Shown here piece after piece: positions 1 to 20,664 of a stretch of DNA of 43,714 bases. Position 1 is the stretch's first letter. Every line of letters begins with the position of its first letter. Below the pieces are notes generated by a model. That model saw only the letters and a program-made list of their open reading frames with translations, did not search any database and was not told the DNA's origin. A program made the position numbers and the translations under genes. The stretch comes from Escherichia phage NTNC80A. The stretch lies in sequence record OP018999.1; one strand, given 5' to 3'.

Positions 1-819
1 GTGGCTAGCGAGTTCGAGAATGGTAGGCTGATTGCGTACGATTTGTCTCAGACCCAAGGGTACACGGGGAATATGCGGTCTGCTGTGTCTGACATGCAGT
101 TCCATTCCACTAATATTGAAGGCTTCACACCACGGGACTTCTTCTATGACCTAGGACACTTCCCTACCTCTTACACTAATGGTTCTTTTATCATGAAGCA
201 TTGGCGAGAAAAAGACTTACAGGTACAATGGTATAATGGTAAAGCATTCATACGGCTACATGAAGAAGATGGCCGTGTAACACTTACCAGTAAAGAGGGC
301 CTCGCTTTGTATGACTTTCGTGCTACAAAAGACGTGACGTTCAAGGGTCGCAACTTTGTATTCAAAAACGATGCAAGTGCAGACGTATTGAAGTGGTTCG
401 GCGGTTCAGGAAATATCTCCACGAAAGGCAACATCTCACCTATGGTAGATGGGGTTCCCTCTCTAGGTACAAATTCCTATCGCTGGGGTGCAGTGCATTC
501 AGTAAATGGGACGTTACAAACCTCTGATGGTAGGCTAAAGGAAATACATGATATTAAACAAGAAGAACTTGATGCTGGGCTTGAATTGTCAGCAAGCCTA
601 ATCAAATATCGTTGGGATGGAGGAGAAAAGTTCCACTTTGGTTGTATCGCCCAAGAGGTAATGTTAATCATGGAGAAACATAAGCTAGACCCATTACAGT
701 ATGGAATGGTTCAGTATGATGAAGAGGCAGACATCTTTAGTGTAAACTACGCTGAATTGAACAGCTTCTGCATCGCAGCTCTGTCTAGGAGGTTGAATGC
801 CATTGATCAAATCAGTTAA
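1..819 (+). CDS. tail fibre / receptor-binding protein with C-terminal intramolecular-chaperone (peptidase S74-like) domain
   Basis: ORF starts with GTG at base 1 and ends TAA 817-819. C-terminal ~100 aa carry SDGRLKEI...FHFGCIAQEV...YAELNSF, the Ser-Lys autocleaving chaperone signature of phage fibres/endosialidases. The 5' end may be cut by the window; no SD is visible across the circular junction. Confidence 0.6.
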   Translation: MASEFENGRLIAYDLSQTQGYTGNMRSAVSDMQFHSTNIEGFTPRDFFYDLGHFPTSYTNGSFIMKHWREKDLQVQWYNGKAFIRLHEEDGRVTLTSKEGLALYDFRATKDVTFKGRNFVFKNDASADVLKWFGGSGNISTKGNISPMVDGVPSLGTNSYRWGAVHSVNGTLQTSDGRLKEIHDIKQEELDAGLELSASLIKYRWDGGEKFHFGCIAQEVMLIMEKHKLDPLQYGMVQYDEEADIFSVNYAELNSFCIAALSRRLNAIDQIS

Positions 820-946
820 GCAAAGTGCTGTACGCCAGAACACAGAAGAACTTATTCAATCAGGACGTGACCCTAAGCAGGCCTATGCCATTGCCAAGGA
901 TGTACAACGTCGTGCCATGAAGAAACCTTCTGCATCTTCTGCGTAG
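797..946 (+). CDS. hypothetical small basic protein (49 aa), last ORF before putative genome terminus
   Basis: ATG 797 follows an in-frame TGA; stop TAG 944-946. Overlaps the 3' end of the fibre ORF in another frame. Product MPLIKSVKQSAVRQNTEELIQSGRDPKQAYAIAKDVQRRAMKKPSASSA. No clear SD. Confidence 0.3.
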   Translation: MPLIKSVKQSAVRQNTEELIQSGRDPKQAYAIAKDVQRRAMKKPSASSA

Positions 947-1099
947 CAGGTAATATCTTAGTGTACACAAGGGCAGGCTTAGGTTTGCCCTTAGTGTATT
1001 CCAAAGGAGGTGGTATGTTATCTTTGTTGTGTATACTCAGTGATGTACTAGGTCGTAAGAGGTACATTCTTAGTGAAGACCAAATAAGGGATGAGAAGA

Positions 1100-1363
1100 T
1101 ACGGAGGTCGCTCACAAAGTAACCAAAGTCAAAATTTTGATGTAGGCGTGTGTCAGCTCTCTCGCCCTCGCCCTCGCCGGGACGTCCCCATAGGGTGCCT
1201 AGGCATTTCTAGGGCAGCGGGAGGGCCGCCACGGGCCTTTCTTAGTGAGGGCCAAAGGTTGCCTAGGCTAGCCGGAGGAGGGCCGAGGAGGGCCATTCAG
1301 GGCCGCTTGACAGCGTGTGTGGGCGTGGGCTATCTGTCCGTTTGTCGCTACGCTCCGCACTCA
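1100..1363. other. GC-rich repetitive tract, candidate terminal-repeat / concatemer-junction region
   Basis: Abrupt GC-rich non-coding DNA with short repeats (CTCGCC x3, GCCTAGG x2, GAGGGCC x3) between the last late gene and the first early promoter, where T7-group genomes carry their terminal redundancy. Confidence 0.35.
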
Positions 1364-1516
1364 CTACCTGACGTGTACCTTAGTTATTACCTTAGTAACT
1401 TCCTTATCGTGTACCTTGAGATAGTCTTAGTTACTACCTTAGTCACTTCCTTAGTAGCTACCTTAGTGAGTGGCTTAGTGGCTATCTATTGCTGTCTTAG
1501 TGTTACCTTAGTGATT
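1364..1516. repeat. tandem array of ~12 imperfect 12-bp repeats (core ACCTTAGT)
   Basis: Read directly: taccttagttat / taccttagtaac / ttccttatcgtg / taccttgagata / gtcttagttac / taccttagtcac / ttccttagtagc / taccttagtgag / tggcttagtggc ... taccttagtgat. Resembles the short repeat arrays next to the T7 terminal repeat. Confidence 0.7.
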
Positions 1517-1659
1517 GCATAGCTAAAGCTATAAGATGCAAATAGGTCGCGGTCGGTAGGCCGCTAAAGAAAGAGAATAGTAATAAGATGCAGTAGGAGG
1601 AACACCAGAAACCTAGCCAACCTAGCCTATCCTAGCCTTGTATCTATTGCTTTTCCTTA

Positions 1660-1675
1660 GTCTCACATGTTAGAC
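1660..1675. repeat. imperfect copy (15/16) of the 16-bp palindrome GTCTCACATGTGAGAC
   Basis: Sequence gtctcacatgtTagac. Confidence 0.5.
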
Positions 1676-1742
1676 AACCTAGGTTTATCTTAGTAGTTGT
1701 GACATGTATCACATAAATAATCTATCTTAGTGAAATTTAGTG

Positions 1743-1771
1743 TTGACACAGGCAATAGCTGGTAGTACATT
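1743..1771 (+). promoter_or_regulatory. host sigma70-type early promoter
   Basis: -35 TTGACA 1743-1748, 17-bp spacer, -10 TACATT 1766-1771. Leader contains GCTCTTTAACAATTTG (1822-1837), shared with the second early promoter. Confidence 0.55.
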
Positions 1772-1892
1772 ACAGTCATCGGGAGGCAACATAGCCAAAC
1801 GGTAGGTAACTAAGTTACCTTGCTCTTTAACAATTTGCTTAGTGTAACCTATGTATGCCGTGGTTAATTACTTATTGAATGAGGAGTTAACT

Positions 1893-1991
1893 ATGAATTA
1901 CGAAAAACTGTATAAAGCCTATTACTATAATGCATTAGTGAGAGGAGAAGAGCCTTTGTCTTTCGCTGAGTTTATGGAGGCTATATCATGA
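1893..1991 (+). CDS. early micro-protein (32 aa), hypothetical
   Basis: SD GAGGAG 1881-1886, ATG 1893, TGA 1989-1991 overlapping the next start (ATGA). Confidence 0.4.
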   Translation: MNYEKLYKAYYYNALVRGEEPLSFAEFMEAIS

Positions 1992-2182
1992 TAAGACTTT
2001 ATCGCTGTAAATATAGCGAGGGTTATTACACCTTAGAAGGTAACACATTAACACGTATTACCTATGGATACCGCCAGAGGCAGTATACACATCCTAAGAT
2101 AGACCATGCGGCTTGCTTGGCAATAGGCTTGGTTTTGATAGGTAATAACTTTGAGGGGTACTACTTCAATGACTCTAACTAA
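1988..2182 (+). CDS. early hypothetical protein (64 aa)
   Basis: ORF track; SD GGAGG 8 nt upstream; translationally coupled to the previous ORF. Confidence 0.5.
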   Translation: MIRLYRCKYSEGYYTLEGNTLTRITYGYRQRQYTHPKIDHAACLAIGLVLIGNNFEGYYFNDSN

Positions 2183-2345
2183 CCGTGAGCTGTCCGTTCT
2201 CTTCACTTTGTTATGCTACATGATTCGTAACAACGAATTACTTACAGATGACGAGTTAGCTTTGTATCATCGCTTCCTTAGCGAAGGTTGGACCGATACA
2301 GTTAACCAGAAACGTGACTTGATGGAGGAGTTAAGCAATGTTTAA
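2169..2345 (+). CDS. early hypothetical protein (58 aa)
   Basis: In-frame ATG 2169 with SD GAGGGG upstream (ORF track gives 2151); overlaps neighbours. Confidence 0.45.
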   Translation: MTLTNRELSVLFTLLCYMIRNNELLTDDELALYHRFLSEGWTDTVNQKRDLMEELSNV

Positions 2346-2547
2346 ACATGAGATTTACACTGATTGCAGTAAATCGGCTAAAGCTATCTGCGAGCTGTAC
2401 AAGGCAGAATGCCAGACGTACAACCTCAACGATGGAACTGAGATGTTTTATCTTCAGTTTGAAAGCAAGTTATCTCACAAACGAGTGATTAACAGCCTGA
2501 ATCAACACTCTTTGGAGTGGGAAGAAGTAAATAGCAATAAAGTTTAA
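2338..2547 (+). CDS. early hypothetical protein (69 aa)
   Basis: ORF track; start overlaps the previous stop; SD GGAGG upstream. Confidence 0.5.
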   Translation: MFKHEIYTDCSKSAKAICELYKAECQTYNLNDGTEMFYLQFESKLSHKRVINSLNQHSLEWEEVNSNKV

Positions 2548-2555
2548 ATTAACTG

Positions 2556-2584
2556 TTGACAGCCACGGCATACAAGGTTACATT
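2556..2584 (+). promoter_or_regulatory. host sigma70-type early promoter
   Basis: -35 TTGACA 2556-2561, 17-bp spacer, -10 TACATT 2579-2584; same hexamers as the promoter at 1743. Leader has GCTCTTTAACAATTTGG (2607-2623). Confidence 0.55.
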
Positions 2585-2652
2585 AGGCACATAGCCGAGA
2601 GGCAACGCTCTTTAACAATTTGGATAGCTTCTTAGTCTGGCGAGGTTAGATC

Positions 2653-2676
2653 TAGGGTATTCTTTTGAGTACCCTA
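2653..2676 (+). promoter_or_regulatory. stem-loop in the Ocr 5' leader, RNase III-site-like
   Basis: tagggtattc-tttt-gagtacccta: 10-bp stem (one G-U) with UUUU loop, about 35 nt upstream of the Ocr start, positionally like T7 R0.3. Confidence 0.35.
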
Positions 2677-2711
2677 TAATGTAACCTAACTAACTAATGA
2701 GGATTAATAAC

Positions 2712-3068
2712 ATGGCTATGTCTAATATGACTTACTCTCAGGTTTACAACACTGCTCATGCTGCACTGGTTGAGCGTGTATGGGACGATGCTATTGATTG
2801 CGTTGACAATGCACACGATGCAATCCATGAGGTAGCTGATAGTGCTGTGCCTGTCTACTATGCTGACATTTTCTCAGTGATGGCGAGTGAAGGTATCGAC
2901 CACTTCTTCGAGGATTCTGGCTTAATGCCAGACACTAAAGACGTAACGGTCGTACTACAAGCCCGTATTTATGAACAACTTACCATTGATTTATGGGAAC
3001 GTGTTCAAGATATGATTGATGCATACATCGACTCTGCTGAGGATTCAGAAGAAGAAGAGGAAGAATAA
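2712..3068 (+). CDS. ocr: Ocr-like anti-restriction DNA-mimic protein (T7 gp0.3-like)
   Basis: 118 aa, MAMSNMTY... N-terminus, strongly acidic, ends EDSEEEEEE. Block [34 protein letters not shown]...[14 protein letters not shown] matches T7 gp0.3 as recalled. SD-like GAGGA precedes ATG 2712. Confidence 0.75.
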
Positions 3069-3174
3069 GGATGGAAAAGCAATACAATTTCCTCTTTTCT
3101 GATGGTGTAACCCTGAAGTGTTCCTTGCGATTTGCACAAATTCGGGAGGAAGTGCTAGGCACTACATATAAACT

Positions 3175-3198
3175 ATTTAGCTGACACTATAAGAGAAG
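3175..3198 (+). promoter_or_regulatory. off-consensus phage-type promoter-like sequence
   Basis: atttagCtgacactataAgagaag: two mismatches to the phage consensus, including A instead of G at +1; upstream of the 3265 gene. Confidence 0.3.
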
Positions 3199-3264
3199 AC
3201 TTAACAGGGCGTTACTTGTTAGCGCCCGATTAAGTTTATCTCAATGAAACAAATAGGTGACTAT

Positions 3265-4149
3265 ATGACTACTGAAAACATCCTCGTTTCTGTTCGTGAA
3301 GCTGCAACCGCTGAAATTAAGCAACACTTAGACAATATCGGCACTTCTTATCTCCGTGTTGGCGCTTGTCTTAATGAGCTACGCGGTGACTTTGAAGGTC
3401 AAAAAGACTTTTTGGCTTATGTAGAATCGGAGTTCGGCATCAAGAAAGCACAATGCTACAAGCTGATGAGCGTAGCCCGTGTCTTTGAAGGTGATGACCG
3501 TTTCAAAGGTGTGGCGATGCGTGTAATGCTGGCCCTTGTTCCTTTCGCTGATGAAAGTATCATCATGGAGAAGGCCGCAGAACTCGCCGCAGATGGCAAA
3601 TTGGACACTAACGCCGTAAACGCCCTGATTGAGCCTAAGAAAGAGCCAAAGGCCGAAACGGTACAATCTAAGGCTGAGGCGGTAAAACCGCAGGAGAACG
3701 TGACTGAGGCCGCAGAATCACAGGAAACGCAAGCGCCGCAGGTAGTTCCGCCAGTGAGTGAGCCGGAGGCTGACGAATCAGCACCGTGGGAAGAGGGAAG
3801 CAAGCCGGAAGCGCCAAAGGCCGCGCCACTGGACAACACGGCTAACACTGAGAACGCCGCCATGTCTGGCCTGCTGGCGCAGATTAAGTCACTGACTGAG
3901 CAATTACAGGCAGCTAACGACCGCATCGCCGCCCTAACCAGTGCACGCGAAAGCAAGAAAGCAGCCGCGCCTATGCTTCCACAGTTTAAATCTTCTTGCT
4001 TTTACGCTCGCTTAGGCTTGAGCGCGGAGGAGGCAACGAAGAAAACAGCAGTGAACAAGGCACGCCGTGAACTGGTTAAGCTGGGATACGGTGAAGGCCA
4101 TGAGGCATGGGCTTTAATATCTGAGGCAGTAGAAGAATTAACTAAGTAA
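3265..4149 (+). CDS. early hypothetical protein (294 aa): globular N-domain, acidic/Pro-rich linker, coiled-coil C-region
   Basis: ORF track 3244..4149; ATG 3265 has the better SD (GGTGA). Central segment KKEPKAETVQSKAEAVKPQENVTEAAESQETQAPQVVPPVSEPEADESAPWEEGSKPEAPK is low-complexity. No kinase motifs seen. Confidence 0.6.
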   Translation: MTTENILVSVREAATAEIKQHLDNIGTSYLRVGACLNELRGDFEGQKDFLAYVESEFGIKKAQCYKLMSVARVFEGDDRFKGVAMRVMLALVPFADESIIMEKAAELAADGKLDTNAVNALIEPKKEPKAETVQSKAEAVKPQENVTEAAESQETQAPQVVPPVSEPEADESAPWEEGSKPEAPKAAPLDNTANTENAAMSGLLAQIKSLTEQLQAANDRIAALTSARESKKAAAPMLPQFKSSCFYARLGLSAEEATKKTAVNKARRELVKLGYGEGHEAWALISEAVEELTK

Positions 4150-4212
4150 CCTTATCGGTGGCATCTTCTTAGGTGTCACCTATTAAGGTTTCTTTAACTA
4201 GGAGTACACAAG

Positions 4213-6840
4213 ATGCAAGATTTACACGCTATCCAGCTTCAACTAGAGGAAGAAATGTTTAACGGCGGTATTCGCCGCTTTGAAGCAGACCAACAGCGCC
4301 AAATTGCATCGGGTAATGAATCCGATACGGCTTGGAATCACCGCTTGTTGTCTGAGCTAATCGCGCCTATGGCTGAAGGTATTCAGGCTTACAAGGAAGC
4401 CTACGAAGGCAAGAAAGGACGCGCACCGCGTGCACTGGCTTTCATTAACTGCGTAGAGAACGAAGTGGCAGCATATATCACGATGAAAATCGTAATGGAT
4501 ATGCTTAACACTGATGTAACCTTGCAAGCCATAGCAATGAATGTAGCTGACCGCATCGAAGACCAAGTACGCTTCAGCAAGCTGGAAGGTCACGCCGCCA
4601 AATATTTTGAGAAAGTTAAGAAGTCACTCAAGGCAAGTAAGACTAAATCATATCGCCATGCGCACAATGTAGCTGTAGTGGCTGAGAAGTCAGTTGCCGA
4701 ACGTGACGCAGACTTCTCCCGCTGGGAAGCGTGGCCTAAGGATACCTTGCTACAAATCGGGATGACCTTGCTCGAAATACTGGAGAATAGTGTATTCTTC
4801 AACGGGCAGCCTGTTTTCCTACGCACCTTGCGTACTAATGGCGGCAAACACGGCGTTTACTACTTACAGACCAGTGAACACGTAGGCGAGTGGATAACTG
4901 CCTTCAAAGAGCACGTAGCGCAACTGAGTCCGGCCTATGCACCTTGCGTTATCCCTCCGCGTCCGTGGGTGTCACCTTTTAACGGCGGTTTTCACACTGA
5001 GAAAGTAGCAAGCCGCATCCGTCTGGTAAAAGGCAACCGTGAGCACGTCCGTAAGCTAACCAAAAAGCAAATGCCTACGGTCTATAAGGCTGTTAATGCT
5101 TTACAGGCTACGAAATGGCAGGTTAACAAGGAAGTGTTACAGGTTGTGGAAGACGTAATACGGCTTGATTTGGGCTATGGTGTGCCTTCCTTTAAGCCAC
5201 TCATCGACCGTGAGAACAAGCCAGCTAACCCCGTGCCTGTTGAGTTCCAACATTTGCGCGGTCGTGAGTTGAAAGAAATGCTAACGCCGGAGCAGTGGCA
5301 AGCCTTCATCAACTGGAAGGGCGAATGCACCAAGCTATACACCGCCGAAACTAAGCGCGGCAGTAAGTCGGCAGCTACCGTTCGCATGGTTGGACAAGCC
5401 CGAAAATACAGCCAGTTTGACGCGATCTACTTCGTGTATGCACTGGACAGCCGAAGCCGCGTTTATGCGCAATCTAGCACGCTTTCCCCGCAGTCTAACG
5501 ACTTAGGCAAGGCATTGCTCCGTTTTACCGAAGGGCAGACTATAGACAGCGCTGAGGCGCTTAAGTGGTTTTTGGTGAACGGGGCTAATAACTGGGGTTG
5601 GGATAAGAAAACTTTTGACGTGCGCACTGCTAACGTGCTGGATGGAGAGTTTCAAGATATGTGCCGCGATATTGCAGCCGACCCGCTGACTTTCACTCAA
5701 TGGGTAAATGCTGATTCTCCTTATGGATTCCTTGCGTGGTGCTTCGAGTACGCTCGTTATTTAGATGCACTGGATGAAGGTACACAGGACCAATTCATGA
5801 CGCACCTACCAGTACACCAAGATGGTAGTTGTTCTGGTATCCAGCACTATAGTGCAATGCTACGTGATGAGGTAGGCGCGAAGGCGGTAAACCTTAAGCC
5901 TTCCGACTCGCCGCAAGATATTTATGGGGCGGTGGCGCAAGTAGTTATCCAGAAGAATTACGCTTACATGAATGCAGACGACGCAGAGACTTTTACGTCT
6001 GGAAGCGTAACACTTACAGGTGCAGAACTGCGTAGCATGGCGAGCGCATGGGATATGATAGGAATCACTCGCGGCTTAACCAAAAAGCCGGTAATGACCT
6101 TGCCTTACGGATCCACTCGCTTAACCTGCCGTGAGTCAGTGATTGATTATATCATTGATTTGGAAGAAAAAGAGGCGCAGAGAGCTATTGCAGAAGGGCG
6201 GACGGCTAATCCGGTGCACCCTTTTGATAATGACCGCAAAGACTACCTAACACCTGGTGCAGCTTACAACTATATGACTGCTTTAATTTGGCCTTCTATT
6301 TCTGAGGTTGTTAAAGCACCTATAGTGGCGATGAAGATGATTCGTCAGCTTGCACGTTTTGCAGCTAAAAGAAATGAAGGCTTAGAATATACCCTACCTA
6401 CTGGCTTCATCTTGCAACAAAAGATAATGGCTACCGATATGCTTCGTGTATCCACTTGCTTGATGGGTGAGATCAAGATGAGTCTACAGATTGAGACGGA
6501 TGTAGTTGATGAAACGGCAATGATGGGCGCTGCCGCTCCTAACTTTGTTCACGGGCACGATGCTAGTCACCTTATATTAACGGTATGTGACCTAGTTGAT
6601 AAAGGGATTACATCTATTGCGGTCATCCATGACTCTTTCGGGACTCATGCAGGCCGCACCGCAGACCTGCGGGATAGCTTAAGGGCAGAAATGGTTAAGA
6701 TGTATCAAGGCCGTAATGCTTTACAGCAACTGCTGGATGAGCATGAAGAGCGTTGGCTAGTAGATACTGGCATCCAAGTGCCAGAGCAAGGGGAGTTTAA
6801 TCTTGAAGAGATATTAGTTTCTGACTATTGCTTTGCATAA
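4213..6840 (+). CDS. single-subunit DNA-directed RNA polymerase, SP6-type
   Basis: 875 aa; start [24 protein letters not shown] and motifs [33 protein letters not shown] match SP6 RNAP as recalled; end ...YCFA. Its specificity fits the promoters in this window. Confidence 0.97.
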
Positions 6841-6848
6841 TACTAATA

Positions 6849-6878
6849 GGCCATTCCTTCGGGAGTGGCCTTTTCTTT
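6849..6878 (+). terminator. intrinsic terminator after the RNAP gene
   Basis: ggccattcc-ttcg-ggagtggcc: 9-bp stem with UUCG tetraloop, then TTTTCTTT. Confidence 0.7.
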
Positions 6879-6913
6879 ACCTACTACCTGTAACATTTCA
6901 TTAACATAAACGT

Positions 6914-6929
6914 GTCTCACATGTGAGAC
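6914..6929. repeat. 16-bp perfect palindrome GTCTCACATGTGAGAC
   Basis: Exact palindrome ending 2 nt before the phage promoter at 6932. Confidence 0.8.
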
Positions 6930-6931
6930 TT

Positions 6932-6954
6932 ATTTACCGGACACTATAGGAGAG
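6932..6954 (+). promoter_or_regulatory. phage RNAP promoter (SP6-type)
   Basis: atttaccggacactataggagag; +1 G at 6949. Confidence 0.7.
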
Positions 6955-7095
6955 CCGTCGGAGACGGGAAAGAAAGGGAATATAAAGAATATAAAGGAAG
7001 TAATAGGTATTAAAGGTTATATAGGATTACCTAGGAATACCTATTACCTTCTTCCTTCCTCTTATTACTACTTAGAGGAAGGGCAGACCTAGGTC
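6955..7095. other. AT/purine-rich inter-promoter region, candidate primary origin of replication
   Basis: Region with inverted repeat aggaagtaataggtat / atacctattaccttcttcct, bracketed by two phage promoters just downstream of the RNAP gene; same position as the T7 primary origin. Confidence 0.35.
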
Positions 7096-7111
7096 GTCTC
7101 ACATGTGAGAC
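7096..7111. repeat. 16-bp perfect palindrome GTCTCACATGTGAGAC
   Basis: Exact copy, 5 nt upstream of the promoter at 7117. Confidence 0.8.
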
Positions 7112-7116
7112 TTCGT

Positions 7117-7139
7117 ATTTACCAGACAGTATAGATAAG
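7117..7139 (+). promoter_or_regulatory. phage RNAP promoter (variant)
   Basis: atttaccagacaGtatagataag; +1 G at 7134. Confidence 0.6.
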
Positions 7140-7164
7140 ACTAACTTACTTTGGAGATTTAACC

Positions 7165-7293
7165 ATGCGTAACTTTGAAAAGATGACCCGTAAAGCTAAC
7201 CGTTTCGACATGGAAGAAGGGCAGAAGAAAGGCAAGAAGCTGAATAAACCTGTCCGTGACCGTGCATCTAAACGCGCTGCGTGGGAGTTCTAA
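7165..7293 (+). CDS. small basic protein (42 aa), T7 gp1.1-like
   Basis: MRNFEKMTRKANRFDMEEGQKKGKKLNKPVRDRASKRAAWEF; same length and N-terminus (MRNFEKM) as T7 gp1.1 as recalled; SD GGAGA 7 nt upstream. Confidence 0.6.
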   Translation: MRNFEKMTRKANRFDMEEGQKKGKKLNKPVRDRASKRAAWEF

Positions 7294-7296
7294 GTT

Positions 7297-9285
7297 ATGG
7301 CTATTATTCAGAATGTACCGTGTCCTGCTTGCCAAAAGAACGGACATGATATTACTGGCAATCATTTAATGATCTTTGACGATGGGGCAGGATACTGTAA
7401 CCGTGGTCACTTCCATGATAACGGTAAACCTTATTACCACAAGCCGGAAGGTGGCATCGAGATAACCGAGTTACCTATTACTGGCAATATCAAATATACA
7501 CCTTCTCAATTCAAAGAAATGGAGAAGGAAGGGAAGATAAGCGACCCTAAGTTGCGCGCCATCGCACTTGGTGGTATGCGTATGAAAGACCGTTGGGAGG
7601 TTATGAATGAGCAAGAAAGGGCAGACCAAGAAGCCGAGTGGAAACTCGATGTTGAATGGTTCCTCACGCTTAAGCGTAAGAACCTTGTATCCCGTCACAT
7701 TCGAGGCGACATCGCTGCAATGTATGATGTGCGCGTCGGACATGATGAAGAAGGCCGAGTCAACCGTCACTACTATCCTAGATACGAAAAGGGTGTGCTC
7801 GTGGGAGCAAAGTGCCGGACGCTGCCGAAGGATTTTAAGTTCGGTCACTTAGGTAAACTCTTTGGTATGCAAGACCTTTTCGGGATGAACACTTTGTCTC
7901 ACGTGTTAGACAAGGGAAGACGAAAGGATTGCTTGCTTATTGTAGGTGGTGAACTGGATGCACTAGCAGCGCAGCAGATGCTCCTTGATTCTGCCAAGGG
8001 TACTAAGTGGGAAGGTCAGCCATACCACGTGTGGTCTGTCAACAAAGGTGAATCTTGCCTTGAAGAGATAGTGCAAAACCGTGAACACATCGCCCAATTC
8101 AAGAAGATTATCTGGGGCTTCGATGGTGATGAGGTAGGACAGAAGCAGAACCAGCAAGCGGCTCGCCTGTTTCCCGGCAAATCCTATATCCTTGAGTACC
8201 CTTCTGGTTGCAAAGATGCCAACAAGGCATTGATGGCTGGCAAGGCTAAAGAATTTGTGGATGCTTGGTTTAATGCAAAGTCATCTGATGAAGTCTTTGG
8301 TAGCCAGATTAAATCTATCGCATCTCAAAGGGATAAGCTCAAGGCTGCACGTCCAGAACAAGGGCTGTCATGGCCTTGGCCTAAGCTAAACAAGGTAACG
8401 CTAGGTATTCGTAAGAACCAACTTATCATTGTAGGCGCAGGCTCTGGTGTAGGTAAGACTGAGTTCCTTCGTGAAGTAGTTAAGCACCTCATTGAAGAAC
8501 ACGGTGAATCTGTAGGCATCATTTCTACAGAAGACCCGATGGTCAAGGTGTCCCGTGCTTTTATCGGTAAGTGGATTGATAAGCGTATTGAGTTACCGCC
8601 AACCAACGACCCGAAAGAAGATGGATACCGTGAGGTGTTCGACTACACCGAGGAAGAAGCTAACGCCGCCATTGATTATGTAGCTGATACAGGTAAGCTG
8701 TTTGTAGCTGACCTAGAGGGTGACTATTCGATGGAAAAGGTAGAGCAAACTTGCCTAGAGTTTGAGGCTATGGGCATTTCTAATATCATCATTGATAACT
8801 TAACGGGGATTAAATTAGATGAGCGTGCTTTTGGTGGGAAGGTTGGTGCACTTGATGAATGCGTCAAGCGGATTGGTACTATCAAAGACCGACACCCGGT
8901 TACTATATTCCTTGTATCACACCTTACACGTCCTCCGGCAAACCGTACCCAACACGAAGAAGGTGGCGAGGTTATCCTTTCTGACTTCCGAGGCTCAGGC
9001 GCTATCGGATTCTGGGCATCTTACGCCTTGGGGATTGAGCGTAACACAAGAGCTGAAACGCTTGACGAAAGGACTACCACGTACATCTCATGTGTCAAAG
9101 ACCGCGACCAAGGTATCTACACTGGAACCAAGGTCATGCTTAAGGGTGACATTCAAACCGGACGTTTAATGGAACCACAAGCCCGTACTAAGTCATTTGA
9201 TACAGGTGAAGCAAGGCAACAAGAAGTGCCGGATTTACCGGACACTATAGAAGAGACAACCTTTGACGATGAACAGGAGTTTTAA
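7297..9285 (+). CDS. DNA primase/helicase (T7 gp4-like)
   Basis: N-terminal zinc ribbon CPACQKNG...CNRGH, Walker A GAGSGVGKT, acidic C-terminus ending DDEQEF. Confidence 0.95.
   Translation: MAIIQNVPCPACQKNGHDITGNHLMIFDDGAGYCNRGHFHDNGKPYYHKPEGGIEITELPITGNIKYTPSQFKEMEKEGKISDPKLRAIALGGMRMKDRWEVMNEQERADQEAEWKLDVEWFLTLKRKNLVSRHIRGDIAAMYDVRVGHDEEGRVNRHYYPRYEKGVLVGAKCRTLPKDFKFGHLGKLFGMQDLFGMNTLSHVLDKGRRKDCLLIVGGELDALAAQQMLLDSAKGTKWEGQPYHVWSVNKGESCLEEIVQNREHIAQFKKIIWGFDGDEVGQKQNQQAARLFPGKSYILEYPSGCKDANKALMAGKAKEFVDAWFNAKSSDEVFGSQIKSIASQRDKLKAARPEQGLSWPWPKLNKVTLGIRKNQLIIVGAGSGVGKTEFLREVVKHLIEEHGESVGIISTEDPMVKVSRAFIGKWIDKRIELPPTNDPKEDGYREVFDYTEEEANAAIDYVADTGKLFVADLEGDYSMEKVEQTCLEFEAMGISNIIIDNLTGIKLDERAFGGKVGALDECVKRIGTIKDRHPVTIFLVSHLTRPPANRTQHEEGGEVILSDFRGSGAIGFWASYALGIERNTRAETLDERTTTYISCVKDRDQGIYTGTKVMLKGDIQTGRLMEPQARTKSFDTGEARQQEVPDLPDTIEETTFDDEQEF
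9233..9255 (+). promoter_or_regulatory. phage RNAP promoter embedded in the 3' end of the helicase gene
   Basis: atttaccggacactatagaagag; +1 G at 9250; simultaneously encodes DLPDTIEE. Confidence 0.6.
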
Positions 9286-13565: not shown

Positions 13566-13994
13566 ATGGCTAATCGTAAAGAGATGGAGATTGTTAAGTT
13601 AGATAATGGCTGTCTCGTGCAGACTAGCCATAAGCTCAATCCTGATGGTTACTTTCGTAAGCGTATATGGCATGAAGGTCGCTTGCAGCACATGATGTAC
13701 CATCGTTACATGTGGATTCAAAAGCATGGTGAGATACCAAAAGGGTATGAAGTTGACCACAAATGTAAGAATCGTGCATGTTTCAATGTTGACCATTTAC
13801 AATTACTTAAGTCGTCTGAGCATAGAACTAAAGACAATACAGGCCGTCATGGTGATAAGAAGCAAGCTGCATATTTAATTTGGAAGCAGCATTGCGGAGC
13901 TATTACAGGAGCTGCCCTAGCTGAATTGGTTGGTGTATCATTCAGTGCTACGTGTAAGTGGATTAGAGGCTGGAGGACTAATGAGCACCAGTGA
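13566..13994 (+). CDS. HNH homing endonuclease
   Basis: VDHKCKNRACFNVDHLQL HNH motif; free-standing gene right after the polymerase; SD AGGAGA. Confidence 0.85.
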   Translation: MANRKEMEIVKLDNGCLVQTSHKLNPDGYFRKRIWHEGRLQHMMYHRYMWIQKHGEIPKGYEVDHKCKNRACFNVDHLQLLKSSEHRTKDNTGRHGDKKQAAYLIWKQHCGAITGAALAELVGVSFSATCKWIRGWRTNEHQ

Positions 13995-15851: not shown

Positions 15852-16298
15852 ATGACTTCCGATCAGATAAAAGAGAAGATACAGAATAATATTGTTGTAT
15901 CTGAAACTGGATGCTGGTTGTGGCAGAAGTCTATAGCTACTAATGGATATGGTAACATCTGCGTAGGTAAAGGAAGAAACAGAGCAGTTCACAGGGTTGC
16001 TTGTGAACTGTATCACGGAGTTCCACCTACGCGTATGGATGCCGTTCATTCTTGTGACAATAAGGCTTGTTGCAATCCAGAACACCTGTCTTGGGGAACA
16101 AGGAGTCGTAATGAAATAGAGGCTGTGAGAAGGCTAGGTAAGTCACATAAACTTAAACTACATGAAGCAGCATACATTAAGTTCTCCGGTTTACCTACTA
16201 AAGAATTAGTAGGTATGTTCTCTGTGAGTAAAGATTTAATTAACAGAATTAAGCGTGGTGTCTTATGGGCACACGTAACCAAGGGGGATTTAAGATGA
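15852..16298 (+). CDS. HNH homing endonuclease
   Basis: HSCDNKACCNPEHLSWGT HNH motif plus C-terminal helix-turn-helix-like region. Confidence 0.85.
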   Translation: MTSDQIKEKIQNNIVVSETGCWLWQKSIATNGYGNICVGKGRNRAVHRVACELYHGVPPTRMDAVHSCDNKACCNPEHLSWGTRSRNEIEAVRRLGKSHKLKLHEAAYIKFSGLPTKELVGMFSVSKDLINRIKRGVLWAHVTKGDLR

Positions 16299-17297: not shown

Positions 17298-18326
17298 ATG
17301 CGACCAAACTTCGACTTCGGAGCCACAGTATCGGAAGACAATAATCTCATCCTGTGGCCAACTGAAGGTAATCGAATCGCTTTAATAGATGCTGATATGT
17401 TACCCTACATCGTAGGTTATACAATCAGTGACATGACTTATGTACGAGCCACAACTCGTGTTAAGTCAGGACAAGTCCCATCAATCAAAGATACACCTGA
17501 GTGTAAGCAAGCGTGTGACCGTGTGAACTCCTTGCTTAACTCTTGGGTGTATGCAGCAGAGTGTGATGCAGCTAAGTTATTCATGACGAAATCAGAAGCT
17601 AACTTTCGTGTACGCCTAGCCTTCACCAAACCTTATAAGGGTCAACGTAAGACCGAGAAGCCCCCCTTCTTCTATGAATTGAGAGAGCATCTCTTAGAGG
17701 TTCATGGTGCAATCTTGGCAGATGGTGAGGAAGCTGATGACCTCATGAGCATTGCACAATGGGACAGCCACCGCCGCTTCCAGCAAGATACAGGTAACGA
17801 GTTCCCTATCGGTAGTCCAGAGCATAAAGCATTCTCTGATACTTGCATTGTTTCCTTGGATAAGGACTTGATGATTGTTCCCGGTTGGCATCTTCAGCCG
17901 GGTCAAGAGAAGAAATGGGTAGAGCCTATGGGTTGGCTTGAGTTACGCCGTAAGGCTAATGGTCAGGTCAAAGACCTAAAAGGTGCTGGCCTCATGTTCC
18001 ATTATGCACAGATGATTATCGGTGATGATATTGATAACTATGCTGGCATACCTGGACGTGGTGCTAAATATGCCTATGATCTTCTCAAGAGTTGTAAGAC
18101 AGAGAAAGAGTTGTACATGGCAGTGCTTGGTGCTTACAAGGCTAAGTTCGGACATGGACAAGTTAAGATTAAGAATTACCGAGGGGGTTATCGTATCGGC
18201 AAAGCCTTTGACTTGATGCTTGAATGTGGTCGCCTAGCTCACATGGCAAGGTTCAAAGGTGATATATGGCGAGCCGATAAGAATGAAATCTTATGGGGAG
18301 ATGATGGCGATGAGTGGATGCATTGA
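17298..18326 (+). CDS. 5'-3' exonuclease (T7 gp6-like)
   Basis: ATG 17298 with SD AAGGAG 8 nt upstream (ORF track GTG 17289); RIALIDADMLPYIVGY aligns with the T7 exonuclease N-terminal metal-binding region as recalled. Confidence 0.9.
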   Translation: MRPNFDFGATVSEDNNLILWPTEGNRIALIDADMLPYIVGYTISDMTYVRATTRVKSGQVPSIKDTPECKQACDRVNSLLNSWVYAAECDAAKLFMTKSEANFRVRLAFTKPYKGQRKTEKPPFFYELREHLLEVHGAILADGEEADDLMSIAQWDSHRRFQQDTGNEFPIGSPEHKAFSDTCIVSLDKDLMIVPGWHLQPGQEKKWVEPMGWLELRRKANGQVKDLKGAGLMFHYAQMIIGDDIDNYAGIPGRGAKYAYDLLKSCKTEKELYMAVLGAYKAKFGHGQVKIKNYRGGYRIGKAFDLMLECGRLAHMARFKGDIWRADKNEILWGDDGDEWMH

Positions 18327-18747
18327 CCACGGTTGTAAAGGTTTTGGCATAGGTTATGCCACGGCATATTACAAGGGTCGTGACGGTAAGAAGAAGTTCA
18401 CCACGAAACACCGAGTAGTTTACTGCAAGGTTAATGGTATTCATCCAGAAGATTTACCTAAAGACCTAGTAATACGCCATACCTGTGACAATGCACGTTG
18501 CATAAATCCAAATCACCTTGAGATAGGAACCCACGCCGACAACATGCGAGACATGGCAGAGCGAGGGCGCGCCTACAAGGGCGGTATGCCCGGTGAGAAG
18601 AATGGGAGATGTGTCCTCTCCGATGAGCAAGTCTTGGAAATCAAGAGGCTACGTGCCGAAGGTTATACCCTCAAACGCATAGCTGACTTGTATTCTGTAG
18701 GCACATCTCAAATCTCCCGTATTACCAGAGGAGAACAACGTGCGTAA
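18301..18747 (+). CDS. HNH homing endonuclease
   Basis: HTCDNARCINPNHLEIGT HNH motif and C-terminal HTH-like region; start overlaps the exonuclease 3' end. Confidence 0.85.
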   Translation: MMAMSGCIDHGCKGFGIGYATAYYKGRDGKKKFTTKHRVVYCKVNGIHPEDLPKDLVIRHTCDNARCINPNHLEIGTHADNMRDMAERGRAYKGGMPGEKNGRCVLSDEQVLEIKRLRAEGYTLKRIADLYSVGTSQISRITRGEQRA

Positions 18748-20217: not shown

Positions 20218-20664
20218 ATGTCAGATATTAAAGTAGGTGACAAAGTACGTCGTAAAACAGAACAACCTAGTGCAGTTTGGACAGGCGCTTGTAGTGTAGG
20301 AAATATCAAACCTTATTCTGATGTTACTGTTAGTTGTGCAGCTGATGATGTGATAGCTTTCGTTGAAGTACAAGGCACTTGGCTGGCAGGCAACTACCAT
20401 GTAGTGTCAGAAGAAAGTACAAACAAGATAGATATGGTTAAACAACCTAAGCACTACGAGTTCTTCGAAGGTGTAGAGGTAATCACTATTATTGCCCGTA
20501 GCATGACCGAGAAGCAATTCGCTGGGTACTGCATGGGTAATGCTTTGAAGTATCGTCTGCGTGCAGGTAAGAAATTCAACACCGAAGAAGACCTGAAGAA
20601 AGCAGACTACTACAAAGAGTTATTCCAGAAGCACCGTCACGAATGTATTGATGAGGATATTTGA
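20218..20664 (+). CDS. hypothetical protein (148 aa), DUF3310-like C-terminal region (tentative)
   Basis: ATG 20218 with SD GGAGG; C-terminal HYEFFEGVEVITI...GNALKYRLR...DLKKADYY pattern. Confidence 0.65.
   Translation: MSDIKVGDKVRRKTEQPSAVWTGACSVGNIKPYSDVTVSCAADDVIAFVEVQGTWLAGNYHVVSEESTNKIDMVKQPKHYEFFEGVEVITIIARSMTEKQFAGYCMGNALKYRLRAGKKFNTEEDLKKADYYKELFQKHRHECIDEDI

Follow-up and report, generated by a model that had tools for sequence, protein, structure and literature searches.

The ocr gene of NTNC80A and its genomic context

The window that we analyzed, the whole 43,714-nt sequence of Escherichia phage NTNC80A (OP018999.1), carries an ocr gene, a homologue of T7 gene 0.3, upstream of an SP6-type RNA polymerase (RNAP) gene. 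A leader with candidate host promoters, boxA elements and a hairpin lies in front of it, and a gp1.1 homologue lies further downstream (Table 1). The ocr ORF ends with a TAA codon at 3066–3068. We identified the ATG at 2712 as its real start because a GAGGA motif lies 8 nt upstream, because an in-frame ATG at 2697 has no Shine-Dalgarno sequence, and because the N-termini of homologues agree with this choice: all type-A Ocr homologues begin with MAMSNMTY, except that of Kenya-K11, which begins with MSNMTY.

Table 1. Sequence features of the NTNC80A early region, with positions counted from the first nucleotide of the window.
Feature	Position	Strand	Basis
Sigma-70-type early promoter candidate 1 (TTGACA-17-TACATT)	1743..1771	+	10/12 matches; just inside genome left end
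Small hairpin directly 5′ of boxA copy 1, putative boxB-like position	1804..1820	+	Stem AGGTAAC-TAA-GTTACCT
boxA copy 1 (GCTCTTTAACA)	1822..1832	+	Perfect match to consensus GYTCTTTAANA
Sigma-70-type early promoter candidate 2 (TTGACA-17-TACATT), directly 5′ of ocr	2556..2584	+	Sequence match
boxA copy 2, the T7-like leader motif CGCTCTTTAACAATTTGG	2606..2623	+	Core GCTCTTTAACA at 2607–2617
Irregular leader hairpin at T7 R0.3 position, putative RNase III processing site	2632..2697	+	Folding
Shine-Dalgarno GAGGA, 8 nt 5′ of ATG 2712	2699..2703	+	Sequence; conserved in alignments
ocr (gp0.3 homologue), 118 aa, net charge −25	2712..3068	+	Pfam, PHROG and PDB matches
Conserved 37-aa ORF (phrog_11746), downstream flank of ocr	3071..3184	+	Homologues K1E gene 4, K1-5 gene 4
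First SP6-type phage promoter (ATTTAGCTGACACTATAAGAG)	3175..3195	+	Consensus match
SP6-type single-subunit RNA polymerase	4213..6840	+	Protein identity
Strong intrinsic terminator candidate after RNAP gene	6848..6871	+	10-bp stem, 6 GC pairs, then T-run
gp1.1 homologue, 42 aa	7165..7293	+	Pfam PF08200 (Phage_1_1)

The sequence-only reading had described a 118-aa acidic ORF closely resembling T7 gp0.3; its coordinates proved exact, and the resemblance was well above significance. The product matched Pfam family PF08684 (DNA mimic ocr) with a score of 142.3 bits (cut-off 25; E = 7.5e-42) over profile positions 1–100 of 101, PHROG 2568 (“ocr-like anti-restriction”) at 1.4e-48, and, in phmmer, the T7 Ocr chain 1s7z_A at E = 1.1e-41, with residues 1–117 colinear with residues 1–117. 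Identity to T7 Ocr was approximately 63% (63–67%; 71 of 110 ungapped positions), made up of 8/8 identical residues at positions 1–8, 15/37 (41%) at 9–45, 44/50 (88%) in the core at 46–95, and 4/15 (27%) at 96–110. With 29 Asp and Glu vs 4 Lys and Arg, the protein has a net charge of −25, compared with −28 for T7 Ocr; we give acidity as net charge, the Biopython pI of 4.05 obtained for all variants being the floor of that calculation. Among the 28 acidic positions found in residues 1–110 of T7 Ocr, 18 were retained and 10 were non-acidic in NTNC80A Ocr, which has gained four acidic positions. The MAMSNMTY start and an acidic C-terminal tail are further likenesses between the two proteins. A single-sequence AlphaFold2 model showed three long helices but was too poor to confirm the fold (pLDDT 56, pTM 0.36). 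Going by its sequence identity to T7 Ocr, the protein would adopt an all-alpha fold forming a bent, DNA-like dimer. By these family and alignment matches, the gene is a genuine homologue of T7 Ocr, the anti-restriction DNA mimic.

The genome around this gene is of the SP6 type. In agreement with the earlier description of the RNAP and promoters as SP6-like, the NTNC80A RNAP was 86% identical to that of SP6, 97–98% identical to those of K1E and K1-5, and 34% identical to that of T7, while the SP6 promoter consensus, allowing up to three mismatches, had nine matches in the genome vs 0 expected. SP6 protein matches ran along the entire genome, mostly at 60–92% identity, and the genome was colinear with K1E, K1-5 and SP6. 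Position 1 of the SP6, K1E and K1-5 genomes aligned at NTNC80A 1158–1162, which marks the genome left end; the stretch is therefore circularly permuted. In megablast, the early region (1100–8000) matched 118 phage records, the best being the Vectrevirus phages VEc3, Sem1, CC1, K1E, LL11 and AAPEc6 at 88–90% identity over 85–95% of the query, and the structural and replication region (9000–33000) was approximately 90% identical over 83–85% to Citrobacter phage CrRp3 and Escherichia phage LL11. Judged by these comparisons, the stretch is a circularly permuted complete genome, K1E/K1-5-like, of the genus Vectrevirus in the subfamily Molineuxvirinae (the SP6 group). Its backbone is only about 88–90% identical in nucleotides to any record in the phage collection. 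It is a typical Vectrevirus member, probably of a new species.

Downstream of the RNAP gene, the terminator candidate may mark the end of early transcription. The gp1.1-like gene that the sequence-only reading had placed at 7165 was borne out by Pfam, with 58.6 bits for PF08200 against a cut-off of 21 (E = 8e-16); its product was 74% identical to SP6 gp9 and 56% identical to T7 gp1.1, and the gene is flanked by RNAP and primase, an arrangement shared with SP6, K1E and K1-5.

Candidate promoters, boxA and hairpin in the early leader

The hexamers of the two sigma-70-type promoter candidates are identical, and the second candidate can be aligned to the region upstream of SP6 gp5. With these promoters, a place at the leading genome end and a position upstream of the RNAP gene, ocr has the sequence setting of an early-expressed gene. 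Each boxA copy lies downstream of one promoter candidate. In rrn leaders a hairpin is followed by boxA, and the small hairpin and boxA copy 1 of NTNC80A stand in that order.

The published boxA consensus, GYTCTTTAANA (PMC5725501), had three matches on both strands of the whole genome, vs 0.09 expected, including perfect ones on the plus strand at 1822 and 2607. The identity of the NTNC80A copies to the boxA of the E. coli rrnB leader spans 15–16 nt: the extended match at copy 1, TGCTCTTTAACAATTT, is identical to the rrnB leader, and so is GCTCTTTAACAATTT at copy 2, the rrnB element being TGCTCTTTAACAATTTA. The core of CGCTCTTTAACAATTTGG has its second copy at 1823–1837, making two matches vs 0.04 expected by chance. 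Like the E. coli rrn boxA and the early boxA of T7, the NTNC80A elements are on the transcribed strand, just downstream of a sigma-70-type promoter. The distance from boxA copy 2 to the ocr ATG is 105 nt, and the T7 boxA, at 813–823, lies 112 nt before gene 0.3. Upstream of ocr, a plus-strand boxA in one to three copies was present in 12 of the 13 other phage loci compared; unlike NTNC80A, SP6 has one mismatch in its boxA at this place (GATCTTTAACA).

The leader motif had originally been called T7-like. It does occur in T7, but it is an rrn-type boxA, identical to that of rrnB and found group-wide. We accordingly read the motif, from these matches, as a host-derived rrn-type boxA, that is, a Nus-factor loading site common to both subfamilies and therefore no mark of T7 ancestry. 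In T7, boxA is a documented antitermination element (PMC3709561), and boxA mutations, like down-mutations of the A3 promoter, render gp2 dispensable (Savalia 2010, as cited there). By analogy, Nus-dependent antitermination may take place at the NTNC80A boxA.

Between boxA and the ocr ribosome-binding site, the irregular hairpin folded with a minimum free energy of −28.5 kcal/mol (z = −4.2), and none of 200 shuffled sequences was equally stable. T7, SP6 and K1-5 share this architecture and position, and the consensus hairpin in eight Molineuxvirinae leaders comprised 24 pairs, of which two showed compensatory changes. When the set was widened to 13 leaders of both subfamilies, the MAFFT alignment was poor and RNAalifold returned only four pairs. 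The T7 stretch at the hairpin position presumably holds the R0.3 RNase III site, which is not annotated in the T7 record compared, and the NTNC80A hairpin may by analogy be cleaved by RNase III. In an Rfam scan of 1100–7400 at E values up to 1, no family scored the leader, and the output consisted of three sub-threshold chance matches (snoRNA, suhB/mmgR and miRNA). A better label for the “T7-like leader motif” is rrn-type boxA, with a hairpin of the RNase III type after it.

Ocr as part of the SP6-group early region

Between the early leader and the RNAP gene, ocr was found in all eight other Molineuxvirinae loci examined: SP6, K1E, K1-5, AAPEc6, mutPK1A2, PDP21P3, Kenya-K11 and KpnP_VR702. 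The six annotated Molineuxvirinae records among them (SP6, K1E, K1-5, AAPEc6, mutPK1A2 and KpnP_VR702) have the order ocr, 37-aa ORF, small ORF, ~300-aa ORF, RNAP, gene at the gp1.1 position, primase; Kenya-K11 and PDP21P3 are unannotated, and ocr and RNAP were located there by ORF search. The SP6 homologue is gp5 (SP6p05, NP_853565, 1637–1996), which is like NTNC80A ocr in its position and leader architecture, and in K1E and K1-5 ocr is gene 3 in each. The gene between RNAP and primase is labelled gp1.1-like in SP6 (SP6p09) and mutPK1A2, and RefSeq applies the label “ocr-like anti-restriction” in AAPEc6, VEc3, ACG-C91 and LL11. SP6 gp5 has been described as a putative anti-restriction protein (Scholl 2004, as cited in a 2016 paper, PMC4837284), and a 2026 paper reports that Ocr is conserved among Vectrevirus phages (PMC13005862). 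Ocr, the boxA-containing leader and gp1.1 are already known, annotated equipment of SP6/K1E-type phages, and, to judge from these gene orders, the T7-like look of all three belongs to the SP6 group as a whole. The sequence-only reading had suggested a mosaic early region or an unusual lineage; the SP6-group relatives examined all carry ocr at the same locus, and this suggestion fell away.

The early region of NTNC80A follows the T7 order of host promoters, boxA, hairpin, Shine-Dalgarno sequence and ocr. Unlike T7 gene 0.3, NTNC80A ocr sits in an SP6-type backbone with a distantly matching RNAP (34%) and is not the first gene, four small ORFs preceding it. Ocr, its leader and gp1.1 nevertheless rank with the most T7-like stretches of NTNC80A (protein identity to T7 of 63–67% for Ocr and 56% for gp1.1, and of 25–36% for RNAP, primase/helicase, DNAP, portal, tail tube B and terminase). 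In a whole-genome comparison, the strongest nucleotide similarity to T7 was that of 2605–3066 to T7 811–1279 (63% over 470 nt), with a C-terminal segment of gp1.7, part of the terminase gene, RNAP segments and gp1.1 coming next. These similarities would be expected if an SP6-type phage had recently taken up a T7-type early module of leader, ocr and gp1.1 and become an unusual mosaic, but we consider such an event very improbable, given that the same three elements occupy equal positions in eight other Molineuxvirinae, including SP6. In standard blastn at 1e-5, NTNC80A 1–7400 had no match to T7, and similarity of 63–66% was seen at looser settings, which is evidence against recent transfer. The ocr genes of NTNC80A and T7 were 64% identical in nucleotides, and third-position identity in codons for identical amino acids was close to saturation, at 48% overall and 41% in the core. 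Because synonymous sites vs T7 are saturated, the divergence is old and the NTNC80A allele is not a recent T7 import. Nor was there, among 571 matches, any allele at 69%–80% identity that bridges the NTNC80A type and T7-like phages.

It is very likely, in our estimation, that NTNC80A is a K1E/K1-5-like Vectrevirus whose positions 2712–3068 are the ordinary ocr of the group, acting as follows. Host RNA polymerase would initiate at 1743 and at 2556, from nearly identical sigma-70 promoters whose sequence match is plain and whose activity is predicted. The rrn-type boxA on each transcript would load NusB/NusE and yield termination-resistant early transcription, as is known for T7, and RNase III would probably cut the irregular hairpin, as at T7 R0.3, thereby giving the ocr mRNA a defined 5′ end. 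The very acidic Ocr would then be made in the first minutes of infection, and its dimer, a mimic of bent B-form DNA, would fill the DNA-binding sites of type I restriction-modification (RM) enzymes and of BREX PglX, possibly also occupying host RNAP; the entering unmodified genome would in this way be protected. We infer the DNA-mimic role because of the full-length identity to T7 Ocr of about 63%, rising to 88% in residues 46–95. BREX is inhibited by Ocr (PMC7261183), and NTNC80A Ocr may, by analogy, inhibit type I RM and BREX PglX and may likewise be sensed by PARIS.

T7 Ocr is also an inhibitor of transcription that binds in the cleft of RNAP (PMC7064336), which raises the question of whether the main role in NTNC80A could be early inhibition of host RNAP or of another DNA-binding host protein, with the anti-RM activity secondary or lost. 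Such a change would fit the divergence of residues 9–45 and 96–110 and the lack of an acidic residue at 10 positions that are acidic in T7. The near-identical core and a net charge that is still −25 count against it, however, as do the conserved early position and leader, which fit a protein needed before the full genome is internalised, and we think this change of role very improbable. Under the preferred reading, in which ocr is the group's ordinary anti-restriction gene, the target range of NTNC80A Ocr could still differ from that of T7 Ocr because of the same diverged segments and lost acidic positions.

Ocr allele classes and probable cassette exchange in Vectrevirus

Comparison of Ocr identity with RNAP identity for the same pairs of phages gave 98% vs 98% for NTNC80A and AAPEc6, 45% vs 97–98% for NTNC80A and K1E or K1-5, 59% vs 86% for NTNC80A and SP6, and 63% vs 34% for NTNC80A and T7. 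Among other pairs, the values were 78% vs 34% for SP6 and T7, 83% vs 33% for K1E and K1F, and 79% vs 98% for SP6 and Kenya-K11. The Ocr proteins fall into a MAMSNMTY-type allele class (T7, 64795_ec1, SP6, Kenya-K11, NTNC80A and AAPEc6) and a MERNANAYY-type class with EIFTVMAADGID and IYEALYNDV (K1F, KP3-1, K1E, K1-5, mutPK1A2 and PDP21P3), while the Ocr of KpnP_VR702 and that of a Salmonella Kayfunavirus look like hybrids of both.

The ocr genes of AAPEc6, VEc3, ACG-C91 and LL11 share the allele class, locus and flanks of the NTNC80A gene; the phage collection held no copy identical in nucleotides, and the best ocr match there reached 92.9%. The Ocr proteins of K1E and K1-5 (gene 3 in each) and of K1F (gp0.3) belong to the same family, and the K1E and K1-5 genes share the NTNC80A locus and flanks, but all three proteins are only 43–45% identical to NTNC80A Ocr, from which they differ in the MERNANAYY N-terminus and in the C-terminal part containing IYEALYNDV. 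K1E and K1-5 Ocr are instead 82–83% identical to the Ocr of K1F, a T7-group phage. SP6 gp5, too, is nearer to T7 Ocr than to NTNC80A Ocr. With 81% nucleotide identity and 72–77% synonymous third-position identity between the SP6 and T7 genes, the clearest cross-subfamily exchange in our sample involves SP6 itself.

Within the phage collection, 45 records of ~44–46 kb carry an NTNC80A-type ocr allele at 83.5–92.9% nucleotide identity and 27 records carry the K1-5-type (K1F-like) allele, with phages of the same name, T147P1 and K1E, on both allele lists. By this count, NTNC80A carries the commoner of two deeply diverged ocr alleles in Vectrevirus. Phages isolated on K1 strains include carriers of each class, and an association of allele class with K1 hosts was rejected. 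Along the sequence, identity to K1-5 and K1E was 83–97% at 2652–2710 and 80–97% at 3071–3190, vs 30–70% across 2711–3070, and the stem variant of the leader hairpin did not follow Ocr allele class. The precision with which the drop coincides with the ORF and the independence of stem variant and allele point to crossovers between leader and ORF, and cassette exchange of ocr alleles is supported by these comparisons. The idea of a mosaic early region survives in this form, as an ocr ORF swapped as a cassette within the genus, and not as a T7-derived mosaic. We found no paper describing this ocr allele pattern in the searchable literature, which is incomplete.

We find it fairly probable that the ocr ORF is a horizontally exchanged cassette, that homologous recombination within the conserved leader and the 37-aa ORF behind ocr brought the NTNC80A allele into Vectrevirus or let it persist there, and that the classes are kept by host-defence selection, through differing RM or BREX targets or through escape from Ocr-sensing systems such as PARIS. 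This reading supplements the explanation of the gene as the group's ordinary ocr and does not replace it. The incongruence of the Ocr tree with the RNAP tree, the closeness of the SP6 and T7 genes, the identity drop exact to the ocr ORF, the coexistence of 45 and 27 records in the genus with two names on both lists, and the hairpin stem variants all argue for this reading, as does the triggering of PARIS by Ocr (PMC9122126 and PMC11464382). Weighing the other way, the allele classes are not known to differ in function, the recombination may be neutral in a region that is mosaic anyway and in which small early ORFs also come and go, and the sample consists of 15 genomes plus BLAST counts. More tentatively, and in our view less likely than not, the ocr ORF may be a precisely bounded cassette of which at least two allele classes (45% aa identity) coexist in the genus, are shared across subfamilies and have differing inhibition or escape spectra through the defences they meet. 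The boxA/RNase III leader and the 37-aa ORF would then serve as recombination arms between phages whose RNAPs are 33–34% identical (SP6 and T7, K1E–K1-5 and K1F), and the polymorphism would be maintained by the defences that Ocr inhibits (type I RM and BREX) or triggers (PARIS).

As a finding about a single phage, the ocr gene, boxA leader and gp1.1 homologue of NTNC80A amount to routine annotation, and the importance of the observation as first stated is very small. The only part of residual interest is the cassette exchange of ocr alleles, a narrower and different mosaicism from the one first proposed. Two Ocr allele classes exist among therapeutic Vectrevirus phages, and if these classes differ in the RM, BREX and PARIS systems that they defeat or trigger, knowing the class could aid host-range prediction.

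Genome ends and species status

The 43,714-nt window (1–43714) is a circularly permuted form of a linear genome. When we aligned it with SP6, K1E and K1-5, position 1 of each of these phages fell at window 1158–1162, which places the left end at approximately 1158–1162, and the repeated CCTTAGT-type end-region sequence at 1140–1560 shares 84% identity with the left end of SP6. Over whole regions, even the best matches reached only ~88–90% identity at 82–95% coverage, and therefore, under the usual 95% rule, the phage probably represents a new species.

Transcription signals downstream of the RNA polymerase gene

Eight nt past the stop codon of the SP6-type RNA polymerase (RNAP) gene lies a strong hairpin resembling an intrinsic terminator, which is likely to be where early transcription by the host RNAP ends; in T7, the record annotation places the early terminator TE after the ligase gene. 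Further downstream, two weaker SP6-type promoters are each preceded by an identical palindrome, with an A+T-rich stretch between the promoters (6932 and 7117) and the gp1.1 homologue immediately downstream of the pair. This arrangement (6914–7137) resembles the one in T7, where phi1.1A/phi1.1B accompany the primary replication origin.

Features identified in the window
Feature	Window	Strand	Description
64-aa early ORF	1988–2182	+	
Terminator-like hairpin	6848–6871	+	10-bp stem with 6 GC pairs, then T-run
Palindrome, copy 1	6914–6929		GTCTCACATGTGAGAC; 5′ of promoter at 6932–6952
Weaker SP6-type promoter	6932–6952		ATTTACCGGACACTATAGGAG; sequence match
Palindrome, copy 2	7096–7111		GTCTCACATGTGAGAC; 5′ of promoter at 7117–7137
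Weaker SP6-type promoter	7117–7137		ATTTACCAGACAGTATAGATA; sequence match
T7 gene 7.7- or gene 2.8-like ORFs (three)	13566–13994, 15852–16298, 18283–18747	+	
gp1.7-like protein, C-terminal part	20218–20664	+	Nucleotide kinase

Putative accessory genes and T7-like genes

The 64-aa ORF lies upstream of ocr, in a variable stretch that begins at the first early promoter. It matched no family in Pfam or PHROG, and within the phage collection only two phages carry it, Escherichia phage LL11 (86%) and Raoultella phage vB_Ro_P3a (74%), so that it looks like an accessory gene of rare occurrence. The three ORFs similar to T7 gene 7.7 or gene 2.8, genes that the T7 record annotates as HNH endonuclease and endonuclease, are without an SP6 counterpart and are probably mobile homing-endonuclease insertions. 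The gp1.7-like gene is one more whose similarity departs from the backbone: its C-terminal part shares 56% identity with T7 gp1.7 and is roughly as close to SP6 (59%), and the segment at 20452–20633 ranks second among the nucleotide matches of this genome to T7.

Relationship of ocr in SP6 and T7

Comparison of ocr between the SP6 record (L002, 1615–1987) and the T7 record (L001, 900–1275) gave 78–81% nucleotide identity, with 72–77% identity at synonymous sites. With the ocr of the Zindervirus Kenya-K11, SP6 ocr shares only 71% identity; the RNAPs of these two phages are 98% identical. These values imply that ocr was exchanged comparatively recently between the lineages of SP6 and T7.
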